Shown here one piece after another: positions 4,526 to 54,600 of a stretch of DNA of 64,000 bases (the stretch's first letter is position 1; each line of letters opens with the position of its first letter). This DNA is from Lingula anatina (Eukaryota > Animalia > Brachiopoda). A program made the translations under genes and the position numbers. The stretch covers positions 7,874,001 through 7,938,000 of the forward strand of contig CM120645.1 in NCBI GenBank assembly GCA_051362555.1, in the 5' to 3' direction. Below the pieces are notes generated by a model, which was given only the letters and a program-made list of their open reading frames with translations, was not told where the DNA came from and did not search any database.

Positions 4526-5990
4526 CGCGCGCGCGCGCGCGCGCGCGAGCCAGACGTGGATTGGCCTCACTTGTTGCGCCAGAGTCCGTGCGAAAGTAGG
4601 TAGGTAGCAAATAACTACCAGGTGTATGGGAATTCTAACTATCGATGCAGTCGACATTGGGCGAATACAATGCACAATATTCTCACATTATGATATATTA
4701 TTACCTTTGCCAAGGAGGTTATGTTTTCATCCCTGTTTGTCTGTCTGTCTGTTTTGTTTGTCATCAACATTACTCAAAAAGTTATGGACCGATTTTGATG
4801 AAATTTTCAGGGTAGGTGGGAAATGGGTTATCTTAGAAGTGATTAGTTTTTGGTGGTGATCCGGATCAATAATAAATCAATAATAATAAAAAATCGCTGC
4901 CTTGGCGGAGGTCTGGGATCTCGGAGTGCTTTTCTAGTTACATATATAACATTCTGTATACATATACGACTCAGACACATAAAATGATTTGCCAAACTTT
5001 AACATCACTTGGTTGAAAAAAAGTTCCCTGAAATGTAATTTGGCCATGAAATCGCCATTATGATACTTCAGCGCAGATAGACCAGATGAGGCTCAACGTG
5101 TGTGCTACTGTTGTATATGTCTTTATGACCTCATTTAGTCTCATAAAGAATGTACAGTAATTTTAAGACGTTATTCTTGTTGTCATCCATAGTTCACCCA
5201 ATAAGGTCGTACTTTATATATGCCTGCACGCAGGACCCGTTAAACTTGTTTAATATTGAAGTGTTTGTGCACATACGGCAGCGTACTTCCCAATGCACGT
5301 AAAGCGCAAACATTTGCTAACTCTAAAAGCACTTACAGCTAAATCCCTTTCAAAGCTTGCTTAACTGTTTTAATTCTTTAATTATTATTGTCGCCTCTCT
5401 TTAGTCGTTTTATTGTTTTTCAGGCTATACTTAAGGTCAAAAAGCTGTCTGATCACAAGACGCCTATATTCCACGTAGGCTTAGTGATGGTTATAAGCGC
5501 AATGAAGCGGAAAGGACTGCAAAAAATCACAGCACTGAACTTGTGGCTATTATCATTGGATTATTTCACAACCACGTTTATCGCCACCGATGTCGGCGCC
5601 TCCCCGAGTGGTTATCGCTTACTTTGTCATATACTGGAAGATCCGTACCCGGACTACAGAAATCCTGAGGCGCGTCCCAGTGAAGAACACGTGCTCATCG
5701 CCAACCACGTTATTAACTGCCACAAACCAGACATGGGAATGAGCAGCCTGGCAACTTTTAATCAGGACACATTTGTTGTGAAAGATTCGAGCAAGAGGGA
5801 AGGAGGAGGAAGCTACCAGTGCGCGCATACATTGCGTGATGGTGAAAGTAGCAATATTGCCGTGAACGCTTTCTTTATTGAACGGATTGGGGGCAGGCCG
5901 TTTGACGAGGTGTTTTTTGTCGGTCGAGTTCATTTCTTAAGAGTCTTAGTTAAAATGGCGTGTATGCTACTACAGAAAGGTAAACTCTGA
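4158..5990 (+). CDS. Uncharacterised ~289-aa protein with N-terminal hydrophobic anchor and GNAT-like acyltransferase motif; exons 4158-4460, 5424-5990
   Basis: ORFs 4158 and 5388 join in phase 0 through GTAAGT (4461) and TTTTTCAG (5423). N-terminus MWMYAGLFFFVTILLFLFAAAALLM is hydrophobic; IFHVGLVMVISAMKRKGLQ resembles GNAT motif A (beta strand then R-x-x-G-L). Confidence 0.7.
4466..4547. repeat. Compound microsatellite (CT)n-(GT)n-(CG)n
   Basis: Directly visible just after the 4461 splice donor. Confidence 0.9.
4698..4939 (+). mobile_element. Non-autonomous Helentron/HINE (DINE-1-like) element in intron
   Basis: Starts TTATTACCTTTGCCAAGGAGGTTATGTTTTC, internal (GTCT)n-like repeat, subterminal inverted copy CCTTGGCGGAGG, ends GAGTGCTTTTCTAGTT; architecture of widespread animal HINEs. 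Confidence 0.7.
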
Positions 5991-7521
5991 AGTAATGATG
6001 ATGATAGTCATCCCATGATTTATTTTTTGGGCATTGTAATGTGTACTTTACTGTTGGTGAATGTACCACAGGCATTGTGATATTTTATACAATAAGGAAG
6101 GACATTTATGACATTATGTAACAGACAGATATAAGAATATTAGTAACACTACAGGCTATCTACAAACTACATGTATCAGAGCATTATCTGTTATCTCGAG
6201 CAACACATTTGCCTAGACTAAGTATGGTTATTAGGTCACTAGATGTCAATAATTGAGGACACTTTTTCACCATCGGTAGAAGAGATACTTCGCTATGTGG
6301 GCAGATTGCGGTTGTTGAGACGTTATTGCGATTGTTGAGACATCCAGATTCCTGCACTGTTCCCATTGTAGACTTAACTAAAATGTCAACATATAACAGC
6401 CTCATGTACCCAGCAATATATTCATTTAAAGTTTTGTCCGTCGGCCTCAATACTTCCCTCGGTAAGCTAATGAAGGAATGATAAATCTCATATCCGTCTG
6501 AAATATCAAAATGTGGTTACTTAATCCACAAAACAACATTTAGCTGACGGACCCAGTGTTTATCACTGTTATAAATCTATATGCCAACTACTGTATCAAA
6601 TCTATTTTAAGCAGCCATGCAACTGGGTCGGGTGTATCAGTGAAAGCATTTGGATTCAGTCAGATAACAGCAATAAAATATGTCACCACGTCTGTTGTGT
6701 ACATAGAGATAGCGCCATGTTGCTGATAAAGGTGACTTGAACACTGAACGTCTCGCCTGACCAGGTGTACATGTCAAGAGAGACAGCACATCTAAATTGC
6801 GACTTTGGGCAAGTACCTGCCACGAAGAGAAATATAACTGGAGAAAAGAGAGGTAAATCTGATTTCTTTTCAGAAAACATACTGCCTAGGTGATTATTAC
6901 AGTCTGCGTCTGAGTAGGGTGGTAAAAACAACTCGTTGCTACGCAGTTAGAATTTTATTATATTTGTTCTTTGATATTTTCGGTTGGGTTTTTCTTCTTC
7001 GTTCACTGTTTAAAAGATTTTTTATTCCTGCATATTTGATATTCTGAATATCTGTGAAGTATTTGCCCGTCCTTGTACCTTCCCTATAATCTTTCGGTTG
7101 CCTTCCTTTTTTCATCATTTCCATCTGGCATTTATTTCATAATTCACTTGATTGATTTATGTTTTAATTACGCACCTTTATGTATATTTTTACTTTCATT
7201 TCCTCTATTTATTTAAAATCATTTCGCTTTGTGGACGTGCTATATTCTGTGTCATGTTTCCTATTATCGGATGAATTTTATTCACCTCTCTGCCGTGATG
7301 TAAAGTATTGCACATCCACCCCATAAGGATCCTTGCGGGAAGTTTCATAACTTCTCTTGCCTATGTCAGACTTGTCTTATTTCATTTAAACATTAAGTCT
7401 CATACCTTACATTACACTGATTGCATAAAGCTTAATGATATGTGTTAATCTCAATTTCCAAACTTTATCATTAAATCCAGGCTTTCCATTCCTCTATTTT
7501 AAGATATTGATCCCAGGAGCC

Positions 7522-9423
7522 ATGTCTCTGTCCAAAATCCTGACGGAAGATTTCCTAACGTGCAGCATATGTCTCGAAAAGTTCAAAGAACCCAAGGTCC
7601 TCGGCTGTACTCATACGTTTTGCCAGCATTGCCTCCAAGACCATTTGGACAAAAATTTCAAAGGTCAGCCTCGCTTCCCTTGTCCTATCTGCAGACGTCA
7701 GTGTGACCTCCCCAGGGGCGGTGTAAGTTGTTTACAAAAAAACCATCTTCTAGTAAGCATATCATACACACTTGGTCAAGTAGAACAAGCGAAAGATGCC
7801 AAGAAGTGCGAAGTATGTTGTCTGAAAAATGTCTGCAATCCACCAACGGCAACGAAACGTTGTTTGAACTGCGAGGAAAGTATGTGTGGAAAATGCTCTG
7901 AGGACCATGTACTTCATAAGTTAAATCGTGAACACAAATTGTTTCCAGTCGACCAGATTGACAGCGACGAATACGTGGCAGAGCTGCGTGCCCGACAAAA
8001 CGTACTTTGTGACCACAACAACAAGGACCCCGTAGAAATCTTCTGTCCAGTGTGTAAAAAGTACATCTGCGCCACTTGTATGTTTTTAGAACACCAAGGT
8101 CATGATTGCCTTAGGATCGAAACTGCTGCCGACAAACGCAAGAAAGAACTACAGCTCCGCGTGAGACCCATCGAGAAGAAAAGTCGACTCTTTGATCAGT
8201 TCAAAAGTGCTGTTGAATTCCAAAAAGCGTCAGTAAAATATGGAAGTGCGAAAGCAAAGGATGAAGTAAACAAACAGTTGGAGCTTATTATTAAGATGGG
8301 CCGTCAATGTGCCAAGGATCTTTTGGAAGAAATAGATGCCAAGTCGAACGCCAAATTAGACATTTTAAATGGTTTAATCGAAACTGCTGCCGCCAACCAA
8401 AACCAACTGGACAACGTTATAGAGTTCTCTAGAAAGCTTATTAACCATGGGAACGATATGGATGTCTTGCAAATGGCCTCGGCCTGTGAGCAAAGCAGTG
8501 AGAGCGTTCAGACTACTGACATCCCGACCCTACCCGCAGCTATGACCCAGCTACAGCTTATCACCAACAACATGGAGCTGTGCGTTTCCAATATCAACAG
8601 TTGCCTTGGAGACGTGGTTCCCGCTGTGAGTGGAAGACTGGTGGCATCATTCAAAGTAGAACTGAGCCTGTCTCCTGACGAGGCTATCAGTCACGTGACC
8701 ACTGATGCAAATGGTGACATCATTGTTGATATTTGGTGTAATGGTGACAAGTCACGGAATATAATCCACATCTACGATAGTACCTTTATCCTACAGGGCA
8801 AAATTCCAAACCCAAGACTAGGAAAAGTGGATGGATTTGGTGGGATTGCCATTGATCATGACGGTAATATCGTCACTAGATGCCGAGAGTCAAATGAAAT
8901 CATCGTCTTCACCAAGACAGGAGACCAAGTAAGAACATTCCACTGTGAGTTACCAGAAGCAGTGGCGGTCAACAGCAAGGGTCACTATGTAGTAGCCGGT
9001 TGTAATGCTCTGACTGTGCACCACAAAGAAGGCAAGGTCCTGCAGACAATACCAGACCCAAACGGATATTATCACAAATACATCCACTGTGGCGCGAATG
9101 ATGACGTCATCGTCACAGATCAAGAAGATCACACCCGTGTGTACGATTCCACTCTCCAGCTTAAATACAGATACGGTACCCTGGGTGATGAGGAAGGACA
9201 GGTGGACAGTCCATGCGGTATGTGCTGTTTGGATAATGGAGACATCATTCTAGCAGACATGAAAAACCATCGTCTACATTTGGTGTCACCAGATGGTGAA
9301 TTCAAGCAGTTTCTCTTGAACAAAGAAAATGGACTTTGCAAGCCGAAAGATGTTACTATAAATCGTCTCGGACAACTGGTCGTTGTGGAAAGATGGGGCG
9401 ACATTAAATTTTTTGAATTATGA
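7522..9423 (+). CDS. TRIM-NHL E3 ubiquitin ligase (RING, two B-boxes, coiled coil, NHL beta-propeller; TRIM2/3/71-like), single coding exon
   Basis: RING CSIC..CTHTFCQHC..CPIC; B-box1 CEVC..CLNC..CGKC..H; B-box2 CDH..FCPVCKKYICATC..HQGH; coiled coil; NHL repeats (GGIAIDHDGNIV, PCGMCCLDNGDIILADMKNHRL, PKDVTINRLGQLVV). GCCATG at 7522 preferred over the 7435 ORF start. Confidence 0.92.
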   Translation: MSLSKILTEDFLTCSICLEKFKEPKVLGCTHTFCQHCLQDHLDKNFKGQPRFPCPICRRQCDLPRGGVSCLQKNHLLVSISYTLGQVEQAKDAKKCEVCCLKNVCNPPTATKRCLNCEESMCGKCSEDHVLHKLNREHKLFPVDQIDSDEYVAELRARQNVLCDHNNKDPVEIFCPVCKKYICATCMFLEHQGHDCLRIETAADKRKKELQLRVRPIEKKSRLFDQFKSAVEFQKASVKYGSAKAKDEVNKQLELIIKMGRQCAKDLLEEIDAKSNAKLDILNGLIETAAANQNQLDNVIEFSRKLINHGNDMDVLQMASACEQSSESVQTTDIPTLPAAMTQLQLITNNMELCVSNINSCLGDVVPAVSGRLVASFKVELSLSPDEAISHVTTDANGDIIVDIWCNGDKSRNIIHIYDSTFILQGKIPNPRLGKVDGFGGIAIDHDGNIVTRCRESNEIIVFTKTGDQVRTFHCELPEAVAVNSKGHYVVAGCNALTVHHKEGKVLQTIPDPNGYYHKYIHCGANDDVIVTDQEDHTRVYDSTLQLKYRYGTLGDEEGQVDSPCGMCCLDNGDIILADMKNHRLHLVSPDGEFKQFLLNKENGLCKPKDVTINRLGQLVVVERWGDIKFFEL

Positions 9424-10239: not shown

Positions 10240-10500
10240 CAGTGGCGGATTTACAGGGGGGTGAGGGGGTCCTGCTCCCTCCCCCCACCTTCGATTTCTG
10301 GTCCCCTATTGAAATTTTGACTAGCTAAATCATAGTTCTAAACCGTACCAAATGGCACCGTTCTCCCTCTAAAATATCAATTTTTTTCGGGGCCCTTCAG
10401 CGGGCCCGTACCCTCACGCCAAGTGGGGGAGGGGGGAGGGTCGGCTTTGCATCCGCAGATATTGCCGAAAAGACCACCCCTCACATTTCGGACCACACAG
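10240..10500. mobile_element. Partial short interspersed DNA-element relic
   Basis: Begins CAGTGGCGGATTTACAGGGGGGG...CCCCCC, a common animal MITE terminus; no clean matching end. Confidence 0.35.
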
Positions 10501-12581
10501 CATATAACTGCATGCATCCATTGTTTCGAGAGTTGTGTGGTAATTACGTAACTCATCTAGCTACACATGGAGTGACACCTCAGTTTCGGATTTAAAATAG
10601 TTAAAGAGAAAATAAATATTTTATAGAAAATTTGCTAGCCAAAAATAATATTCCATATTAAGTATCAACCCAGTATACCTCTCTTACCAACACGTTTCCT
10701 GCGACTCCTTTTTGGCGCGTTATAGTAACACCCGGGGCTCAGTATTTAATGCATAAGTGACTTGCAAAGAGTTTGTGAGAAATTGCACGTTCTGCAGACA
10801 GTACGCGGAGAGGGAAGCTGACAGTTTTGATCGAGTTGTCCAAAGTTAAAATACAGAACGCACAAAAAAATCGATGATTTTCGATGGATTTTCTCAACGG
10901 TTAGGGTATACATTATCAATTTGAAAAAAAAAATCCAGGAAAATGTTTTTATTTATTTATTAATTTAGTTTACTTTATAAAGGGCTAGCCTGCTTTGTAG
11001 ATTTTCGTATCCATGTCCTTTAATTTAAATTTAAAAAAGAAAACATGGACCGACCCTGTTCAGCTACTATGATGGTTAAACCTAAATCAAAGTGTATTTC
11101 GTCTACTGACCATGTTTACAGACACCCGTCGCTCGAGAAAGAAATTATCTTGGTCTTATCTACATTTCTACTAATGTACCCTCCTAGTGCATTTCACGTT
11201 AAACAATTTAAGTAATGTTTATGTCTTAATTTTCTAATTACACGTAATAATTAAAGAGGAATCAAATAAGTAAAATAATAGGGAGTTATTGTGTGCAAGT
11301 TTAATATTTTTACGAGTCGACAAGTGTAGAAATTATTTTAGTGTTAAGAAAAGATGAAAAAGGCCAAAGTCAAATGTAGTTTTATTTATTTTGTTAATTT
11401 CACAATAGAGTTTTTGTTTTCTGTCACGTGCATAATACATGCTACCTTAGTTAACCTGCATCTCAAGTTTACTTATATCATTTTCCACTGAACACCCACC
11501 AGAAGTAAAAGACTATCGAAAGGTTCGTCGTTACCCTCGCCCTTACAAACGAACTGAATTGGCAAGAGCTGGACTCTTTCCCATTCTTGTCACATGTCAC
11601 GTGACTTAAAAAACGGTAATTCCATGTAAAACAAGCGTATCATATCTGGTCCGGTCTGTTACCATGATCTGGTGCAGCATCAACTGATATCCTTAAAGCG
11701 GGCGAGCTCGTGTCACGATAAACGTGACATCGTTACGCTTACGGCATCATGACGCTACCCGCTTAAGGTAAACCTCGTGCATTTTCTTATGGTGATAATG
11801 CCGGGGCATGGTTTGCTTTAAAAGATAAAGTTCAATGCTTTTGAATATAAAATGAAATAAATTATCTAAAAAATTCATTCATTTATCCATGAAGTAAATA
11901 TACACATATTCTGCAGTTTTGAGTGCTTCTTGTAAGAATTAGCAATTTTTAACCCAATGCACATCGGTATACATTGCAACATTTTTCGGTCTGATGTGGT
12001 CATTTAGGACCCAAATATTTCAAACCATTTAAGGGTCCGTTAGAACGTGAATAAAAAGTGCCTTACACATCTTATATAAGTATAGATAAACAGAATAAAT
12101 ATTGATTAAAATAAATAAAATTTAACCCTAATTCTATTTTTGCGTTAAATATTTCCATCCTTATATATCTAATATGTGAATTTATTTCCTTTAATTTTTT
12201 TTATTTGAAAGAAACGGCCATGGAGTTATGGCAGGTTACAATTTTTAAATGTGTCATTTTATAATGGAATTTCACTATAGAATTTCGCTACGGAAAGTCA
12301 ACGTTTTGCCATACCATCAGTCAAATTATTTTTTATGACCACAAGGAATTTTTCCGCACTGCAATACAAGTACAGCACAGTTTTGTAAACGGGAAATACC
12401 TACTTATGCCAGGTCCTGCGCGAGAGGGTAGGCTTGCGTTAGCATGCAATGGTGTGTGGCAACTCAGGGCTTGTGCGAGAGGGTAGGTTTGTGATTGCAG
12501 GCTTAATTCTGTGGCAACTTACAATCTGTTTGAACGTGAATTTAAAGGCTAACAGTTGACAAAGACCCTCACTCCGGAAAC

Positions 12582-15500
12582 ATGATTCGACAGTCCGCGT
12601 ATTCAAGCCTCCTTCTTCTGTGTATTGCAGGTATGTATGCCTTACTATTTCTGTCAGAAAGAATAACATAATTTATCATAAATCATAAATGACCATAATC
12701 TAGATACACATAATATGTGTATCTAGATTATGGTCATTTAAGCCTCCATCTTTTGATTCTGTTCTATGAGATCTGCACCGTTCTCAAAAGGTAAACTAAC
12801 AAACGGCGGCAGTATTAAATGTGTAGCGTGGAAAGTGTGGGGATCCTTTCAGCTGTCACAGTCAAGATTTTCGGTTTTCTCTATTTTTTCAAAAAGGCAA
12901 TGTCCATTAGCTGCAATGTATACCTTTACATCGGTTGGCTGAATTGTACATATAAAGGTTTAATAATTTCATTATATTTTTTAATTACAAAACCTTTGCT
13001 TTAAGTTCTTAGGGAATGAAAAAGTTGATAGGGTAAAGGCGATGTAACGAGACACACTCATTCAAAAAATGACATGAATGCTCTTAGTGTCAGAAATTAT
13101 AAAGAATCCTTGAAAGTTACATGGCTAAGAAGAATCATGTATAAAACTGTAAAAGATTAACCTTTTTACGTAGCTTCATAGTAAGAATGTGAAATGGTAC
13201 AAATGGGAATAATTGAGCATCATACTTACAGTGTGATGTGCCATGAATGAGTTTCAAAAGCAGTTGACAGTTTGTATAGTAATGTTGAATTCCTAATAAT
13301 GACAAGAGATAAAAATTGTTCGTTTTGGTTAAAAACTGATTTTCCTGGCGTAAAATACGACTTCACCATACTTACCAATGGTAAATAAATCCATTCCGAC
13401 ATTCAAAGTTAGTTTGATTTTTTTTTTTTTTTCAATTTTTTAATAACCTCATTAGAGATTATTGCGGATGTATAAAAGGCCATTTATGAAGGTCTGCGTG
13501 ATCTGATGGCAATCACAGATTCTAAAATAATTGCGATAACCAGCACGACGCAGGAAGAGGACCGGACCTACCTACCTACCTACCTACCTACCAAACAAAG
13601 AACGGTGGCTAGTATTGACATAAAGCAATTTCCAGTGGACCGGTAAAGATCATCCTCCAAGGTTCTGTCGCAGGTTGGGGAAAAAGAAGCATGGAGAAAA
13701 AGATAACAAGAGGACCCAGAAGAGTTGCTCCTGTTATATAACTGACACAGTATGAGGCGTTATAGAAACTACCCTACGACCCCAAAGGATTGTTAAATGC
13801 GTTGCTTTAGATAATAGTCATCGTATGGCTTACAAAAAAACCAAAGGGCCTAGGAAGTACTAAGTCAGAGCGCCAGAGATGTTCTGCAACGGGTTCAGTG
13901 CAAAGGCAGTTTATAATCTGTTTTATCTAAACATTTCCAGAGTTTTTCCTTATCATTTTTACCAAAAACCGAAACAGATTGAAACAGATTGTCTTGCCCA
14001 ACATGAGATTCATATTATAAATCCTTTGCCGTATTTCAATTTCTCTTTGATATCATAAGCGGTCTCCTCGGCCGCCGTGATCAGCTTAAGGGCGTCCAGG
14101 GCTGCGGGAAAGAGACCAGGCTCTCCCACCAATTCACACAGCTGCAGTTATGTAAGATCTGTACCCAGTAGCCTGCGCAGTCCCACGAACATGGGTCCCA
14201 AAGGGTTGGATACGTTTTACCAGAAATACACTGAGGCATATGGAATACCAGTGCTTGGTAAGTTCAAATGAGGCCCAGATTTTTTGCCATGGCGATTGGA
14301 ACCTTACTTGTACCTAGCAGCGAGTTGATAACATTAGACATCAGGCAAGAGTAGTTTAATTTCTTGAAAAGTTTTCTTTGGCGTTTATATTCAAAGCTTC
14401 TGCCAAAATATTTAAACGCATCTTGAAACATGCACTATTTTCCAACCTCCAGGATCCAGAAGCGTCCCAGATGATGCACTTCGCCGTGCCTGCTACACCG
14501 TGCGCTTTCTTTTCGCCGACCGCCTCGATGTTCGTACTGCATATTACCAACGCTTCGGCCGCTTTGCCGTCATGGGCAAAGACGAAGTCACCACCGACAT
14601 CCCAGAGCACTCCCACCTCGATCCCACCTACTGGGACAAGCGTGCACGTGGTCTCGGGGCGACTCTCTCAGCACCGGTTGCAACAAGCGCAGAGGAGAAC
14701 CTCCTTTGCTACACTAAAGACGGGTACCGCAGTGAAGACATCGCCCTCCATGAGTTTGCGCATGCGCTTCATAACTTAGGCGCCACGTATGGTGTGTCCA
14801 CTTTCCAGAGCCGCCTCAAGAGTGCCTATGATAGCGCCAAATCTAGAGGATTATGGGCAAATACCTACGCCATGACCAATGTCAACGAGTACTGGGTGGG
14901 TTTATTCGTAGAACTTAAACTTATATTTCGCTTTTGTAAACTGTTCAGAGGTATGCTTGTGTTTATATATTATTTCTGTGTGTAGGATGCTTTCGTTGAC
15001 TTTATTTTGTGTTACCAATATCTAGACCGATTGCCAATTTTTCATGAATAACTAAGTGCGTGCCTGTCCTTGTTCGTATCGTACAAACCGGCACGTGCTC
15101 GGGTAGCATGTTTATTTTAAGCACGTTAACTTTAAGTTTACAAGTCATAAATTCCAGTTGATCGACGCACCAAGATGTATACAACTTTTTGATTGGCATC
15201 TGAGCAGTTCTGAGGTTACATTTATTTTCTCACAGGCGGAGGCAGTACAGAGTTACTTTGGCGTAAATACCCACAGCGCCACGGCTAATGGCGTACACGG
15301 CCCAGTCAGCACCAGGGACAAACTGAGGACCTATGACCCCACTGTGTACGGACTGATCCAGGAGATCTTCCCGTGTAACAACAACTACATCAAGAGGTGT
15401 GATAAGTCACGTGGTAAGCCGGTGCTTTCTATCTTTGATTTAACTTTAAAATCTTTGTTTTTTAATATCACTGATCAAGGATATCAATTGTTAATTGTGC

Positions 15501-17186
15501 CTCCATTTAAGTCACAGTTCTTTTTTTTTTCAAACAACGGAATCATCTTCCCCCTCCCCAATATTTCAATATCTAAACAGACAAATATAGGGGACGAAGA
15601 AAATTAATTTTTATTCGGCTGTTGTTCGAAGAAATTCCATGTTTTATTGTCAAATTGAGCGCTGGTAAAATGCTTTACTTGGCTACTTATTTGTTTTGCT
15701 TTGCCCAATAATCATTTGTGAGATATGTGGTATACGATGTTTTTTTCGGCAAAAAGAACAGATTGCCTTCCCAGGCCTTGGATTGTGCCATTATCAGATG
15801 TAAGTGCCATCGTCAAATTTGGATAAACTTTTCATTTAAGAAATGATAAATAAGTTGTACTGTTGAAAACTGTTTCCTATTCCAGCGAGCGAGGCTGCCC
15901 AAACTCTGCGGATGAACTGTGACTCATCCGGAACAGGTACAGGTAGGGCGACAACATTGCCTCAAGTAGCTTCAAGACATGCGCTTGGTCGCTTTTATAT
16001 GTCATTCACAATTGCTTTGCGATTTTTGATAAGTCCAAATGAATATTGGCTGTAATTCTAATTAGTAACAAGGCATCGGGACTTGCTTCCTCTTTGCTAC
16101 GTAGGACCCAGAGCATGTACTTGTTCGTAAGATATGTTTTGCAACAGGGCAATAATTGTCAAAAGAATTTGCCTCTACTAATCCTTACAGATCTGGATCT
16201 GAATGGGATACGTTCATTCAGTATTCAAGACTTACAGTACTTGACTCCATTTCAGGCACAACTGCTGACTGCAAAGATAACAATAAATACTGCCCAAGCT
16301 GGGCTAAAAATGGCGAATGTCAGAAGAACCCGAGTTACATGTTGCCCAACTGTAAGCTCAGCTGTAACCGTTGCTCTGGTAAGTGTGGTCTGGCCTTATC
16401 ATAGTGAAAGAACTTTTTAAAAAACTGTAGAAAAATATCGATTGGCAAATGTATACCCGGTAGAATTTAATTTTGGTTGAAAATAACTTATGGGCATAAA
16501 TTGTTATATGTAAATACAATCATTTGTTTTGTTTTTGTTGGAATTAAAACTTAATTATAATTAAATGAAATAACTTATGAGTGTAAATTGTTCAATGAAA
16601 ATACAACCCTAATATTCTGTAATAAAAATAAACAGTTAAGTGTTTGGAAAGACGTGCTGATCGATACATAAATGAAAAGAATCATTTCTAAGTAGGAAAT
16701 GAAAAAAGCCAAAACGTAACACGATAACGAGATTTGTAACATCTCGTCATCTCGAGATGATACCTGTAACGTTGACAGAGGTCCAAAAATCAGCATAAAA
16801 ATGGAGATAACCTTAATGATGAGATCATGTAATTTTAACAGACAATTTAACTTATTTTTTTAATAGATTGGAGCATTTTTGATTCAGGTACAAGTACTGC
16901 GTACCGAATTCCATTCAATAAGGTCAACAGATTTTTAGCGTTTCGTTTGGCATGTAATGCATCACGATGAGGAATCATTTAACTTCTGTTGGTGTTTTCT
17001 ATTTTTCGCACACACAAACACACACATATCAGACTTTACAATCGTACGAATAATCTTTCTATGTTTTCAGGCGTGAATTGCGTAGATAATAACTCAAACT
17101 GTCAGAATTGGGCCTCGAGAGGGGAGTGCAACAAAAACCCCGGCTACATGCTCTCGAATTGCAAGAAGAGCTGCAACGTCTGCTAG
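12582..17186 (+). CDS. Secreted HEXXH zinc metalloprotease (lethal factor/PPEP/MtfA-like) with two C-terminal ShK domains, copy 1, ~387 aa; exons 12582-12630, 14060-14257, 14453-14895, 15236-15413, 15886-15942 (alt. donor after 15936), 16256-16378, 17071-17186
   Basis: All junctions GT-AG and phase-compatible. Signal peptide MIRQSAYSSLLLLCIAAVSSA; EDIALHEFAHALH; YAMTNVNEYWAEAVQSYF; RDKLRTYDPTVY; two 6-Cys ShK domains (CKDNNKYCPSWAKNGECQKNPSYMLPNCKLSCNRC; CVDNNSNCQNWASRGECNKNPGYMLSNCKKSCNVC). First exon is the least certain. Confidence 0.85.
12686..12740. repeat. Perfect palindrome, 27-bp arms, 1-nt spacer
   Basis: TAAATGACCATAATCTAGATACACATA-A-TATGTGTATCTAGATTATGGTCATTTA. Confidence 0.92.
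12990..13150 (+). mobile_element. Eroded L1/Tx1-type LINE ORF2 fragment
   Basis: Fragments translate to FLGNEKVDRVK and ESLKVTWLRRI, resembling post-RT L1/Tx1 motifs FLWNGKxDKIKR and SLKxxWLRR; frame broken. Confidence 0.4.
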
Positions 17187-19890: not shown

Positions 19891-22800
19891 ATGAAGACCA
19901 CTCTGATCTTGTTTATTACAGGTAGGCATTTTTATTTTATACATTTAGTAATGAACTCACTAATTTTCAGAAAGAAGAAATATGACCGACCCCAACGATC
20001 AAATGGAGGGGGGGAATATATTTTCGAGGCGTAGCTAGGTCAAACAAAAATGGATAAAATGTATAAAAGCGCACCCTTATTACGTGGTAATCAGTATTTT
20101 TCGATCCTCATTATTTTCAAATTTAAAGAATGCTGATTATTGGTTTGGAAAGTGGGGAAATTTACAGGAAAACCCTAAAAACAGACAACGTGCGTCGGGC
20201 AGTTTGGCATACCAGCTCCGTTGGTCTGCCGCTAGATGACGAGGTCCAAATACTACCAGTTCAACTAAAATTTCGCGCATTCTCGCTTGCGATTTCACAC
20301 TACATTTGGATATGGCTTGTAAACATATATATAAGTCGATGACTGTAAAATAACTGAAGGCAAATTATTCGAATGTGATTCCGTGACAACGAGAATTAAT
20401 TATGAATTGACTGAAAAATATCTTTTTACTTTTCATATCGTCCTTGAAAAACGTTATTGCTTTTTTTTCATGGGGCCTGGCAGCGTATATGTGCATCAAT
20501 CCTGACAAATGTTTCGACTATAAGTACTGATATGAGTAGGCCTCAGGTTACCTTGAACCACAGAAGTTTTTTATCTCATAAATTATTTGCCGCATTTTAA
20601 TTTCTCTTTGATATCATCAGCGGTCTCTTCAGCCGCTGTGATCAGCTTAAGGGCGTCCAGGGCTGCGGGAAAGAGACCAGGTTCTCCCACCAATTCCCAC
20701 AGCTGCAGTTACGTAAGATCTGTACCCAGTAGCCTGCGCAGTCCCACGAACATGGGTCCTAAAGGGTTGGATACGTTTTACCAGAAATACACTGAGGCTT
20801 ATGGAATACCAGTGCTTGGTAAGTTCAAATGAGGTCCAGATTTCTAGGCAAACCTAGTAATCTAGCAGCAATTTCATTTATTAGACATCAGACGTTTCAG
20901 AAGTAAAAATGAAGTTTAATTCGTTGAAAACCTGTCTTTGTTGTTTCCTCTCTGAAAATTAAAACATTAGTTTTGATAACCTCCAGGATCCAGAAACGTC
21001 CCAAATGATGCACTCCGCCGCGCCTGCTACACCGTGCGCTTTCTCTTCGCCGACCGCCTCGATGTCCGCACTGCGTATTACCAGCGCTTCGGCCGCTTTG
21101 CCGTCATGAGTAAAAACGAGGTCACCACCGACATCCCAGAGCACTCACACCTCGATCCCACCTACTGGGACAAGCGTGCACGTGGTCTCGGGGCGATTCT
21201 CTCAGCACCGGTAGCAACAAGCGCAGAGGAGAACCTCCTTTGCTATACTAAAGACGGGTACCGCAGTGAAGACATCGCCCTCCATGAGTTTGCGCATGCG
21301 CTTCATAACTTAGGCGCCACCTATAGGCTAGTGTGTCCACTTTCCAGAGCCGCCTTAAGAGTGCCTACAATAGCGCCAAATCCAGAGGATTATGGGCAAA
21401 AACCTATGCCATGGCCAATGTCAACGAGTACTGGGTAAGTTTTGCTGTACGACTTGAACTTTTGTCAACGTTATGTGATTAGGCCTACATGTATATATAT
21501 ATATATATCATGCATATAGGTCGGATTTAGTCGAATTTATTTTGAATTTCCAAATAATACCAAAGTGTGCGCCTGCATGTCCCTGTACGTATCCAAAGTA
21601 TAGGAAAATGCACGGGTAAGTATACGTTAACTTTAAGTTTACAAGTCGATATTCCTGTTGATTGACGCAAAGATGTATTTAACTTTTGGATTGGCGTCTG
21701 AGAAGTTCTGAGGTTACCTTTATTTTGTCACAGGCGGAGGCAGTACAGAGTTACTTTGGCGCGAATACCCACAGCGCCACGGCCAATGGCGTCCACGGCC
21801 CAGTCAGCACCAGGGACAAACTGAGGACCTATGACCCCACTGTGTACGGACTGATCCAGGAGATCTTCCCGTGTAACAACAACTACATCAAGAGATGTGA
21901 TAAGTCACGTGGTAAGCCGGTGCTTTCTGTCTTTGTTTTAACGTTTTAACTTTAAAATCTTTGTTTTTTGATATCACTGATCTAGGATATCAATTGTCAA
22001 GTGAACCTTCATCTAAGTTAGTTATAGTTTTTCAATCAACGGAATGAACTTCCCTCTCCATTATTTCACTATCTAAACAGACATCCTTTTAAGGGACGAA
22101 AAAAAATTAGTTCAGCTGTTGTTCAAAGAAACTGCGTGTTTTATTGTCAGTTAAAGCGATTGTGAAATGTTTCCTGGTCTTATTTGTTGTGTCTTGGCCA
22201 ATTATCATTTGTGAGATGTGTGGAATACGGGGTATTTTTCGGTAAGAAGTTCATTACCAACAACTTGTCCTTTCGGACCTCTGATTATGCCTTCATTCGA
22301 ATGGATATAAGTGCCATGATCAAATTTGGATAAACATTACATTTGAGAAAAGAAAAATGGTAAATAAGTTGTATTGTTGATAATTATTCTTATTCCAGCA
22401 CGCGAAGCTGCCCAGACTCTGAGGATGAACTGTGACTCATCCGGAACAGGTACAGGTAGGGCGACAACGTTACCTCAAGTAGCTTCAAGACATACACTTG
22501 GTCACCTTTATATATTATTCACAATTGCTGTGCGATTTTTGATCAATCAAAAAGAATATCGGCTTTAATTCTAATTAGTAACAAGCATCGGGAATTTCCT
22601 TCTAAAGGCTGCGTTGGACCCAGAGCGGGTACTTGTTTGTAAGATATGTTTTGCAACAGGGCAATATTATCAAAAGAATTTGACTCTACTTCTTAAAGAT
22701 ATGGATCTGAATCTGATACGTTTATTCAGTATTCAAGACCCAGATTGACTACATTTCAGGTGACTGCAAAGATAATAATAAATACTGTCAAAGCTGGGCT

Positions 22801-23858
22801 AAAAGAGGCGAATGTCAGAAGAACCCAGGCTACATGTTACCCAACTGTAAGCTCAGCTGTAACCGGTGCTCCGGTAAGTATGGTCTGGCCATATCATAGT
22901 GAAAGTACTTACTGACTGTAGATAAATACCGATTGGCAAGTGTATAGCCGGCATAACTTTGTTTTGGTTGAAAGTAGAACTTTTAATAAAATGAAATAAC
23001 TTATGGGCGTAATTTGTTAAATTTGTAAATACAACCCAAATATTCTGTCTAGTCTGTCCGGAAAAAAACAGTTAATTTTTTGGAAAGACATGTTGATCGT
23101 TGCATACATGAAAAGCATCATTTCTAAGTAAAAAAAATGAAAAAGGCCAAAACAACATGATAACGAGGTTTGTAATATCTTGTCAGTGCGAGATGTTACG
23201 AGTTATGTGGAGGGAGGTCGAAATATCACAAAAGAAATTGCGATCACCTTTAAGGTACACTTCATGAGATTTACCCGTCAAACTTGATCTCCCCAGGAAA
23301 ATAAGCAATCTCACAAATTATTAATCTATCCTTCTCTTCAATTGGATTCGACCTTTGATGAAATTTATATTATAAAGGTTGATTTTAGCCGGCCAGTCAT
23401 TATAACAGGGACCAGCCTATAAGCTGCTACGGAAACATCAGTATCAGGTACGCTCCAGAAAAATATTTTTAAAGGGGGCTAAATCATTTTAAGGTGTATG
23501 TAAGGTTTTATGAGAAGCTGTGGATGGCCAAAACGAGCATTTGGAGGATTTTCAAGCCCATAGACTGTACCTTTAATGATAAGTTCAAGTAATTTTTATA
23601 GGCATTTTAATGTTTTTTTTTTTTTTTGATAGACTGGAGCAGTATTTCTAGATATCATATCAAACATGATTAGTTACTTCATTTGGTGTGTAAGTACATA
23701 TATCCAAGTTTACGAACAGATGAAAAATAACTTTGATTTCAGGAGTGAGTTGCGTAGATAAGAACTCAAACTGTCAGAATTGGGCTTCGAGAGGGGAGTG
23801 CAGCAAAAACCCCAAGTACATGCTCTTCAACTGCAAGAAGAGCTGCAACGTCTGCTAA
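19891..23858 (+). pseudogene. Metalloprotease-ShK copy 2, frameshifted; exons 19891-19921, 20621-20818, 20987-21434, 21734-21911, 22399-22455, 22760-22873, 23743-23858
   Basis: Closely similar to copy 1 with the same splice sites from exon 2 on; exon 3 is 448 nt versus 443 nt (net +5 at ~21325-21330, TAT-AGGCTA-GTGTG versus TAT-G-GTGTG), giving a stop at 21822-21824 after splicing. Could be an assembly or allelic defect. Confidence 0.75.
23253..23572. mobile_element. Kolobok-like (TTAA-target) MITE in last intron of copy 2
   Basis: AGGTACA...TGTACCT termini at TTAA; the paralogous intron of copy 1 shows the empty site (GATAACCTTAATGATG, ~16806-16821). Confidence 0.7.
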
Positions 23859-51600: not shown

Positions 51601-54600
51601 GGGTTATGCATATTTCTTTCATATTTTATAAATGACATATTAAATTTGAATATTTCGGGTAAAGAAATACACAAAATAGCTTATTGTAATAATCAAAATA
51701 ACTTTATTAACCAAACGGTACTAAAATATGCCAAATCATGTGTCAAAAAAGTATGCTCACACAGCAAAAAGTCCGTGATGATTAAAACAGCTTATTATGA
51801 AAAAATAAAGTTCGATCATCTAAGAATTAGTTTTAATAAAAGAAGACTGTAGATAATAGATGATTAATCGTCTATTATGCAATAAATATCGGGTGTGCCT
51901 TCCCTGGTTTTGAACAACAGCTTCACATTGTCTCCTGCAACTTGCCACCAAATTCTGCCAATCTTGCTTTGAGAGCCGGTTCCATTCTTCATTTACTGCC
52001 TGCTGGACCTCTTTAATGTTTCTAACTGGAGGTTGTCTCTCATTTACTGCCCTGTCAATCATATCCTAAGCATGTTCTATTACATTGAGAATTGGTAAAT
52101 ATGCAGGCCAATCCAAATGTGGGATACCGCGCTGTTGCAGCGCGTCTTGCACGGACCATGCTTTCTGGATGGGCGCATTGTCCTGCACCAAAATGATTTT
52201 TCTTTCTGGATTTGCTTGAGTGTGTGATTGTATGCACCCCAATGGTCTTTCGTCTCTGTATTGTTGACCAGGGCACCTCCCTTGAATGACGTACGGTGGC
52301 AATTTTTCATTGTTTGGTTGATATGAACTGGGCCTGGTGGCATAATCGAACCAGATATCATCATCTCTTGCGTCGGTTAAAATTATTCTACCAGAAAGAG
52401 GCTTGTCCAATACATGGTGAGTTGGGCGACATTTTGCTACCAGCTTGGACACTTGACTTGGTGCTACATTTTTGTTGCCTTGCAATCTGTCTCTTTGGCA
52501 CCCCAGCACGATGGCTTCCCATTATTTGCCATCTGATTACCTCGTTGAGTCCTCTTCTAACCATTGGTTGGTCCAAAAGAACAAATTGTGCCCATGAAAA
52601 AAGGCCAAACTGGAAGCTCCTCATGGCATGACCAAACTGTTTTTCGCAAGTGGGACCCCCATTGCATATTCTGTCGTGTCCAACAGCAAATAGTACTCTA
52701 ATGTCACGGTCCAGTAAGTCAAAGTAAAAACAAGAGAAATATCTAGCTATTGTACAAATTTTGCCTCAATAAAATTTTTGGTTGCTGAGAAATTCGAGAA
52801 ATAAGAAAGTGTTGCTTAACTTATGAGCATCAGTGTATATATTCTTTTAATCTTAAAAGATCATTTTTTTTTTTTTTGCCCTCCGTACTCACTTTTCGGC
52901 ATATGCGGCACATTTAGCCCGAGAAAAGTAACTGACGACACGCGAGATTGGCCTACTAGTGCTTCATAAACAATACCTGGGTTTAGGGGTTAGAGCAGAG
53001 GTAAAGCAACAGTAAAGTTCCTGGACTGGCATTGAAAGATATTGTTCGTATGGTAACTTTCAGCGTACCCTCCTCAGTGAGGTGAGATAATCCACACTAG
53101 TCTGAATCAGGACAAATTAATACAGACATATTGCCACCTAGTGCATTAAAATGCATGTGTAGGGCCTATGTAGAGTGCGGTATATAAAAATACTTTTTAA
53201 AAACTTTTTTAATCACAAATTACCATTAATTATTTCCGTTTTGGCCATATGCATATCCAGACATCTTGTCACCCTATTCCCTAACTCATTCATTTATTGT
53301 AGTGCCAATGTGATACAGCATAGAACATTAGGGCCTATGGAACAGGTTAGATAGTGTGCAGTTGCTGCCAGTGTCATCTCTGTGCACCACCGTGACAAAG
53401 ACGTCAAAATTAAAACGCTACTTGCAGTACTTAAATGTTGTGTTTGTCCTTGAAAACTCATACTTGAGACAGCGTTGCGTGTATTTAAAATTTAAAATAA
53501 AGTGACACGACACTGGCATTTTAATGTGGTGTCAAAACACGCCATGAAACTAGCATAATACTTCAGGAACGAGATCTTAAATTGAAAGGAGGTTCATTTT
53601 ATTTGACTTGAATTTATTTGGCAGTATGTGTTGTCTTCAGGTGATAACCCAGTTTTAATCAATGCTCAACGGTCACTTGAACAAAATAGGACAATACTCT
53701 TATGTTTGTATTTTTAACAATCTGCCCACAGCAACATAAATACCATTTCTGTATCAAAATACCTCCTCTCATTTTGAATAATTATCTACAGCTAATATGT
53801 CAGTTTATATCTAATTTATCAAAATTTTGCTCACATATCAATGTGCACCGTCATGCTAATTAGAAAATGTCTGATTTCCAAAAAATGGGACTACTACATG
53901 TTAAGGATTTTTATTTACTTCTTAGTCTTAAGTCCAGAAAAAGGGGCAGTATTTCAAAGCACGTTTTCTAAAATGGACATATTTTGCTTGGCAATAGAGA
54001 AATATTGGATGCCTAATATGCACTAAATACACACCTACTGGTAAATACCAGAGTCCCTTATTGAGAATAAAAAATGGTGTTGTCAATGAGCCTGATACAT
54101 AAGACAGGCCCCAAAAATAATACAAAGCCCACCCTAGCCCCATTCTACTTAGGACAGCCATCCCTTCCTTAGAAATATTCAACCGATTGTAGATTCAAAA
54201 TAAAATAAATCTGACCACAAGCGGTCACAATCTAGAACTTGCGGAGCGAAAGGGACATTCCCAATAAAAGTTATGTTATTTTTTTATCTCACTTACTCAT
54301 TATATAGAGTCGTATCTGGCCTCCATATTGATGTGATTGGGATATGAAATGACGAGATGTTATCATGGTCACTGGCGTTCCACTTTAGCAGGTGATCTTG
54401 CCATTCCTGCAATGATAAATAATTCTTGGTTTAAGATGGCTATCAGTTGGGTGTCGGAAGGGAGTAGCACAGTGTATTTACCTGAACCAAGAGCGGCTGA
54501 AAAGCCCTATTACTGGACAAGTCAGTCCTAAAAAAAAAGAAATTGAAACCCCCACTGATGTCTGAAAGCCAGAGTAACGTGCAGCATTCCATTTCCTCAA

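Follow-up and report, generated by a model that had tools for sequence, protein, structure and literature searches.

A predicted secreted zinc protease with two ShK domains in Lingula anatina belongs to an old animal family of likely bacterial origin

Gene structure at the locus

In a 64,000-nucleotide stretch of the genome of the brachiopod Lingula anatina (contig CM120645.1, hereafter the window), a 7-exon gene occupies positions 12582-17186 of the + strand. Its 1164 nt encode 387 amino acids and a stop codon, and a signal region, one catalytic domain, a linker and two ShK domains account for the protein in full. As the original prediction had proposed from the DNA sequence, the modeled catalytic domain shares its fold and active-site set with the M34-like proteases, the Pro-Pro endopeptidases (PPEPs) and lethal factor. 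The gene is an ordinary member of an old animal family, not an oddity of one lineage. The best reading of the family's origin is a single ancient acquisition from bacteria before the cnidarian-bilaterian split, which is likely but not proven.

The six introns are all GT-AG, with phases 1, 1, 0, 1, 1 and 1, and GC content is 0.53 in the exons versus 0.35 in the introns. Exon 1 (12582-12630) provides the start codon and most of the predicted signal peptide. It is the least certain exon: of the ATG candidates in 10500-14059 it scored best as a hydrophobic first exon ending in phase 1, judged on hydropathy and splice signals, and neither homology nor RNA reads gave it support. Exon 2 (14060-14257) completes the signal peptide, carries the sequence RASR and begins the catalytic domain (RPG..C, then the strands FYQKY..YGIPV). 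The catalytic core lies in exon 3 (14453-14895), with RARGLG, EEN, the HEFAH segment that holds the two zinc histidines and the general-base Glu, the Tyr and the distal Glu. Exon 4 (15236-15413) supplies the remainder of the Glu helix, LRTYDP and the end of the domain (FPC..C), and exon 5 (15886-15942) a linker with an animal-specific Cys followed by a Gly/Ser/Thr spacer. Exons 6 (16256-16378, phase 1-1) and 7 (17071-17186, with the stop codon) each encode one six-cysteine ShK domain; these exceed the PF01549 cut-off of 20.9 bits at 38.1 bits (E 2.3e-9) and 42.7 bits (E 8e-11). The exon phases and scores thus confirm the claim of two ShK domains, each on its own phase-1 exon.

Aligned singly, exons 2-5 tile P0006, a relative from Mytilus, without gap or overlap (residues 69-116, 118-263, 264-322 and 324-341), with one residue remaining per split codon; exon 2 matches its segment at 65% and exon 4 at 64%. 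Because these exons cover the relative end to end, the splice sites are fixed independently, by homology. The spliced reading frame that had been predicted therefore holds, and the translated exons contain every motif named for it: RASR, RGLG, EENLL, HEFAHALH, LRTYDP and the distal segment YAMTNVNEYW|AE, which a phase-0 intron interrupts at the bar.

Six spliceosomal introns, a tandem copy and neighboring TRIM and Cys-loop receptor genes show that the gene is integrated in the host genome and is not contamination. Flanking genes of these two kinds place the locus on an animal chromosome.

Fold and active site of the catalytic domain

The structural comparisons consistently lead to PPEPs and lethal factor. 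A predicted model of the full-length relative P0006 (predicted local distance difference test score, pLDDT, 84) matches PPEP-2 at Z 11.8 (root-mean-square deviation, rmsd, 3.4, 169 residues aligned), PPEP-3 at Z 11.6 and lethal factor at Z 10.1. Certhrax (Z 8.4) and the Klebsiella structure 3dl1 (Z 7.5) come further down, and the top eukaryotic zincin is ERAP1 at Z 4.8. Every row listed at E≤0.001 in a Foldseek search with this model is a PPEP. The predicted model of window exon 3 (pLDDT 95) gives the same order, with PPEP-2 at Z 10.3 (rmsd 2.9, 129 aligned), a further match at Z 9.0, lethal factor at Z 7.3 and MMP-12 at Z 3.3. The structure search against the PDB that had been proposed as a check thus returned no standard metazoan zincin family.

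Sequence profiles lead to the same proteins. A phmmer search of PDB sequences with exon 3 alone found no match, and a 42-sequence family profile retrieved four PDB sequences at E≤10 (E 0.12-1.4), all of them lethal factor or PPEP. In the profile alignments to lethal factor and PPEP-3, HEXXH and Y......E...E (Tyr-x6-Glu) line up. Among 65 family members, 41 match ATLF and 33 match Peptidase_M90 at E≤0.1; relatives score as low as E 5e-7, and some bacterial members exceed the ATLF cut-off. NCBIfam had no model for the catalytic domain in the eight proteins scanned.

The first His of HEFAH is 46 residues from the distal Glu, and the Tyr lies 7 residues ahead of that Glu. The two HEFAH histidines and the distal Glu are predicted to bind zinc; the Glu of HEXXH would serve as general base, and the Tyr, whose helper role is known from lethal factor and PPEP, would assist. 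In lethal factor the zinc ligands are His686, His690 and Glu735, the base is Glu687, and His686 and Glu735 are 49 residues apart (available part of PMC5668564). The HEXXH residues (both zinc histidines and the general-base Glu) are kept in 108-110 of 113 animal-clade domains, and the six active-site positions as a set in 105-110 of the 113; a zinc ligand is lost in some amphioxus and bacterial copies. This conservation suggests that the family is active, and by sequence and model the window protein is very probably a working M34-like peptidase.

The PPEPs (PPEP-1/2/3; MEROPS M34; PDB 6fpc, 9g0j, 5a0x) are the best structural match, at Z 10.3-11.8, with HEXXH, Tyr and distal Glu aligned. They are secreted single catalytic domains, to which some homologues add anchor domains (PMC8610288, in part). 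The window family is only 12-20% identical to them in structure alignments, is longer, and has its own RARGLG and EEN motifs; its animal members add cysteines and ShK domains, whereas PPEPs are reported from two Firmicutes orders. The lethal factor catalytic domain (PF07737, ATLF) shares the gluzincin-type His-His-Glu site and Y......E...E, with spacing 49 versus 46 here, at about 15% identity. Lethal factor exceeds 700 aa and, unlike the window protein, has a protective-antigen-binding and delivery domain; nothing in the 387 aa points to cell entry. MtfA and Peptidase_M90 (PF06167) have a related active-site architecture (part of PMC5668564), and the fold match to 3dl1 is poorer than that to PPEP.

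Secreted zinc proteases with C-terminal ShK domains are familiar in the same animal groups as ShK-astacins and MMP-23 (PMC9848320 and PMC6409789, both in part). Their layout is the same, but their catalytic family is unrelated: the metzincin motif HEXXHXXGXXH is absent from the window gene and from all 587 HEXXH domains of the family. Together with the preference of the structures for PPEP and lethal factor, this bears out the earlier statement that the protein is not an astacin or MMP. Nor did any astacin or MMP structure appear in the strong structure matches, an absence that by itself rules nothing out.

Relatives in animals and bacteria

The family searches covered the best 120-150 of 610, 3679, 4314 and 5206 matches, most of them without a name. 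Among the matches listed, named relatives come from at least 25 genera plus Sanderia, in eight animal phyla. Cnidarian members occur in Xenia, Hydractinia, Rhopilema and Sanderia; bilaterian members occur in molluscs, an annelid, a nemertean, a sea spider, a barnacle, echinoderms, hemichordates and amphioxus. Of the matches listed, none carried the name of a vertebrate, insect, nematode, sponge or protist, and one scan of viral contigs found no relative. Identity to the window domain is 47-66% over 55 named animal rows. Four cysteines are nearly fixed in animals and rare in bacteria, and the ShK pattern is present in 77 of 111 animal-clade proteins versus none of 360 others. Some animal members have Ig, TSP1, ZP or F5/8 domains in place of, or besides, ShK. 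Database labels seen for animal members were only 'uncharacterized' or 'ShKT domain-containing', and no description of the family was found in the literature, with supplements, subscription journals, MEROPS and CDD outside the search. Neither the fold nor the protease-ShK layout is new in itself; within the same bounds (no supplements or subscription journals), their combination and an animal branch of the fold were not found in print.

Several observations on individual relatives were made along the way. In amphioxus proteins P0017, P0155, P0217 and P0352 the domain sits inside long Ig/TSP1/FN3/ZP proteins, and P0017 has lost the first zinc His. The protein records of P0015 (Aplysia), P0013 and the Xenia-like P0033/P0036 break or skip at points matching introns 3 and 4; going by protein records alone, this is a hint of shared intron positions. 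Three short intron-free metagenome contigs (L131-L133) encode animal-clade members and are likely spliced transcripts of relatives.

The nearest non-animal kin are unnamed, secreted-looking bacterial proteins; over 109 named bacterial rows, identity reaches 50% and has a median of 43%. This supports the earlier view of a bacterial-type protease, and the outgroups in the trees described below are bacterial as well. Holders include Planctomycetota, Bacteroidota, Myxococcota, Poribacteria and others, and the wider family amounts to 1350 clusters at E≤1e-30. Its presence within bacterial phyla is patchy, at 17, 8 and 12 of 401 genomes; distant matches and a center genome picked for having the gene are part of these counts. 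These bacterial M34-like proteins are true sequence relatives of the window protein, with the same motifs and mostly hydrophobic N-termini, but unlike animal members they lack ShK and join other partners, namely cyclophilin, PKD, Ig, sulfatase, hydrolase, DPP-IV and VHL-beta domains. The cyclophilin fusion accounts for 30 of the best 120 listed rows, probably one clade, and the DPP-IV fusion for 5 of 54 proteins. The bacterial branch (L001-L080, P0214-P0357) is a large unnamed family, often with tandem double domains or fusions.

Origin of the family

Animal sequences form one clade in every tree, with no named bacterium inside (support 100 in a 702-row FastTree and 100/100 in IQ-TREE). Within the clade of the 702-row tree, cnidarians group together, as do most ambulacrarians, and the window gene falls with lophotrochozoans at modest support; this pattern is expected under vertical descent from a cnidarian-bilaterian ancestor. 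The IQ-TREE analyses, run under a mixture model, used hand-picked sets of 63 and 43 rows, the second after removal of long branches. Fifteen duplicate or fragment loci were removed first and 14 partial loci later, three of which had joined beside the animal clade with support 76 in an earlier tree. With the root placed on distant bacterial homologues, which separate from the animals and close bacteria together at 100/99, maximum likelihood (ML) nests the animals among Bacteroidota and Myxococcota, at 97/81, 98/92 and 98/84 in one set and 97/83 in another. The visible outgroups are bacterial whether the animals are nested or sister.

No named non-animal eukaryote was present among the matches listed or among 30 proteins looked up, those EukProt entries with a species name come from jellyfish, and the eukaryote-like unnamed rows all fall inside the animal clade. 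Acquisition from bacteria on or near the animal stem is fairly likely on this evidence. Since the family spans eight animal phyla, both the acquisition and the fusion to ShK most likely predate the cnidarian-bilaterian split. The original prediction had described a bacterial-type protease that was domesticated, given introns and fitted with ShK modules. Bacterial kin, introns and separate phase-1 ShK exons agree with it; the events most likely did not take place in this lineage. A named donor was considered and rejected, as the sister group moved among Myxococcota, two unnamed proteins, Bacteroidota-rich sets and long-branch rows.

Several results weigh against an M34-like enzyme of bacterial descent, or against parts of that account. 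Exon 3 matches Peptidase_M90 in Pfam only at E 0.16 (12 bits versus a cut-off of 26.2) and does not match ATLF, and the exon 3 model returned nothing at E≤0.001 in Foldseek; the sequence links to ATLF and M90 are weak. RNA reads from 8 of 9 runs with the same label (about 6-30% of each) gave no listed splice joint, and exon depth was a trace only. These runs show many differences on the neighboring TRIM gene and so may come from a divergent population. The immediate sister group of the animals changes between trees. In approximately unbiased (AU) tests, a topology in which the close bacteria form one clade and the animals its sister is not rejected (p 0.169 and 0.371), so the phylogeny that had been proposed to see whether animal sequences nest among bacteria gives nesting as the ML preference without forcing it. 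The analysis is only a weak test of a broad opisthokont distribution without bacterial nesting, which had been named in advance as the result that would speak against a bacterial source. In one close Atlas cluster, bacterial members make up only 73% and non-bacterial ones 27%. With the best 120-150 matches seen, most of them unnamed, relatives in protists, sponges or fungi could be hidden.

The last three of these points, the AU tests, the mixed Atlas cluster and the many matches unnamed or beyond the best 120-150, would also suit a gene older than animals, which entered earlier eukaryotes or was inherited by them and was kept by animals. The long animal stem, at 0.6-1.1 changes per column, leaves room for unsampled lineages on that account. 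The lack of any named non-animal eukaryote, the jellyfish identity of the EukProt entries and the position of the eukaryote-like rows argue against it, and we regard a pre-animal eukaryotic history as rather unlikely.

If transfer holds, animals have widely kept an ancient bacterial gene with unusually close bacterial kin (identity reaching 50%), and the protease-plus-ShK layout arose independently of astacins. The PPEP/lethal-factor fold has been presented as a clan of proteases secreted by bacteria (part of PMC8610288), and what appears to be an animal branch of it is kept in eight phyla. For astacins, a transfer from animals to bacteria has been proposed (PMC9848320, in part), the opposite of the direction favored for the window family.

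Secretion, ShK domains and possible function

The signal peptide of the window gene is predicted from hydropathy alone. Hydrophobic N-termini are usual in the family (83 of 107 proteins in animals and 289 of 350 in the rest, versus 88 of 2355 internal windows); secretion therefore looks ancestral, and the window protein is predicted from its sequence to be secreted. RASR had been put forward as a possible processing site. The sequence is present, but a conserved furin-type propeptide site was rejected, with a basic site at that position in 16 of 66 relatives against a background of 14%.

Taken as a whole, we lean, though only a little, towards a secreted zinc endopeptidase of PPEP/lethal-factor fold, from an old invertebrate family descended from one bacterial gene, with an extracellular role at gut or body surfaces. 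A bacterial M34-like gene would have been taken up once, before the cnidarian-bilaterian split, with cysteines, introns and ShK exons gained later, in animals. Barrier and gut epithelia are the main sites of expression of the ShK-astacins (available part of PMC9848320). By analogy with those proteases, the enzyme may cut proteins outside cells in gut or body-surface secretions, and its ShK domains may act as a tether or substrate-binding module and not as a channel blocker. The family offers a testable new protease specificity.

A more specific version would make the protein an effector dedicated to antimicrobial or anti-biofilm action, with bacterial surface proteins as its substrates, much as adhesins are cleaved by PPEPs at Pro-Pro bonds. 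Among solved structures the PPEPs have the closest fold, bacterial fusions with cyclophilin or DPP-IV weakly hint at proline-rich substrates, Mytilus, Elysia and Branchiostoma each have several paralogues, and an antimicrobial peptide of ShKT type, aurelin, exists (part of PMC4848628). Yet identity to PPEPs is only 12-20%, and bacterial kin are also joined to sulfatases, hydrolases and PKD/Ig domains, which fits general extracellular digestion. We consider such an effector doubtful. The fuller scenario is equally tentative: an early transfer of a bacterial protease, ShK added before the split, and use at mucosal surfaces to cut bacterial surface proteins. If true, it would turn a bacterial enzyme against bacteria.

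The suggestion of a venom, with proteolysis combined with block of Kv channels by the ShK domains, fares worse. Protease-ShK fusions occur in cnidarian venom transcriptomes, where a dual role has been proposed (PMC4848628, in part), family members are found in jellyfish and a nemertean, and in the PDB the sequence closest to ShK domain 1 is 2mcr, whose entry gives an immunomodulatory peptide from Brugia. Block of Kv channels is held to require Lys22-Tyr23, although the pair does not suffice and there are exceptions (available part of PMC6409789). With the position matched by pattern, the two domains here have Ser-Tyr and Gly-Tyr instead of this pair, and Lys precedes Tyr in only 6 of 117 ShK domains of the family. 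That scarcity, the absence of any cell-entry or delivery domain and retention of the family in mussels, amphioxus, acorn worms, sea cucumbers, a barnacle and pond snails, many of them filter or deposit feeders, make a predatory toxin very unlikely, and the claim of venom and Kv-channel block is not upheld. A non-venom extracellular role is quite probable. ShK-bearing matches in venom screens, as a caution, need not be toxins.

It is just as improbable that the domain is mainly a zinc-dependent binding protein with little proteolysis, like MtfA, a cytoplasmic regulator that binds Mlc: 3dl1, which we take to be MtfA, matches the P0006 model, about half of the 65 members match Peptidase_M90 and some copies have lost a ligand, but 108 of 113 animal domains and 495 of 507 others retain the general-base Glu and the secreted PPEPs fit better than 3dl1.

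Tandem copy and neighboring genes

A tandem copy lies 3′ of the first gene on the + strand, with exons 2-7 at 20621-23858 and a candidate first exon at 19891-19921, whose sequence is unrelated to exon 1 of the first gene. Near 21325, in its exon 3 and a little past the HEXXH motif, an indel shifts the reading frame. Over 361 codons the two copies differ by about 42 synonymous and 21 non-synonymous changes, with a ratio of non-synonymous to synonymous substitution rates (dN/dS) of 0.125 and no stop codons. Either purifying selection acted on both copies until recently or the indel is an assembly error. In the last ShK domain of the copy a Lys stands before the conserved Tyr, unlike in the first gene.

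Upstream, 7522-9420 holds a single-exon TRIM gene (RING, B-box, coiled coil, NHL) on which RNA reads are present, with many differences. On the - strand, 25200-50700 contains at least four Cys-loop (nicotinic-receptor-like) channel genes arranged in tandem, followed on the same strand by a remnant of a DDE_3 transposase at 52069-52521. Two runs show stranded RNA coverage at 5000-6950, their first mates falling on the - strand; the covered region includes an open frame of 202 aa (5382-5987) that has no Pfam match.

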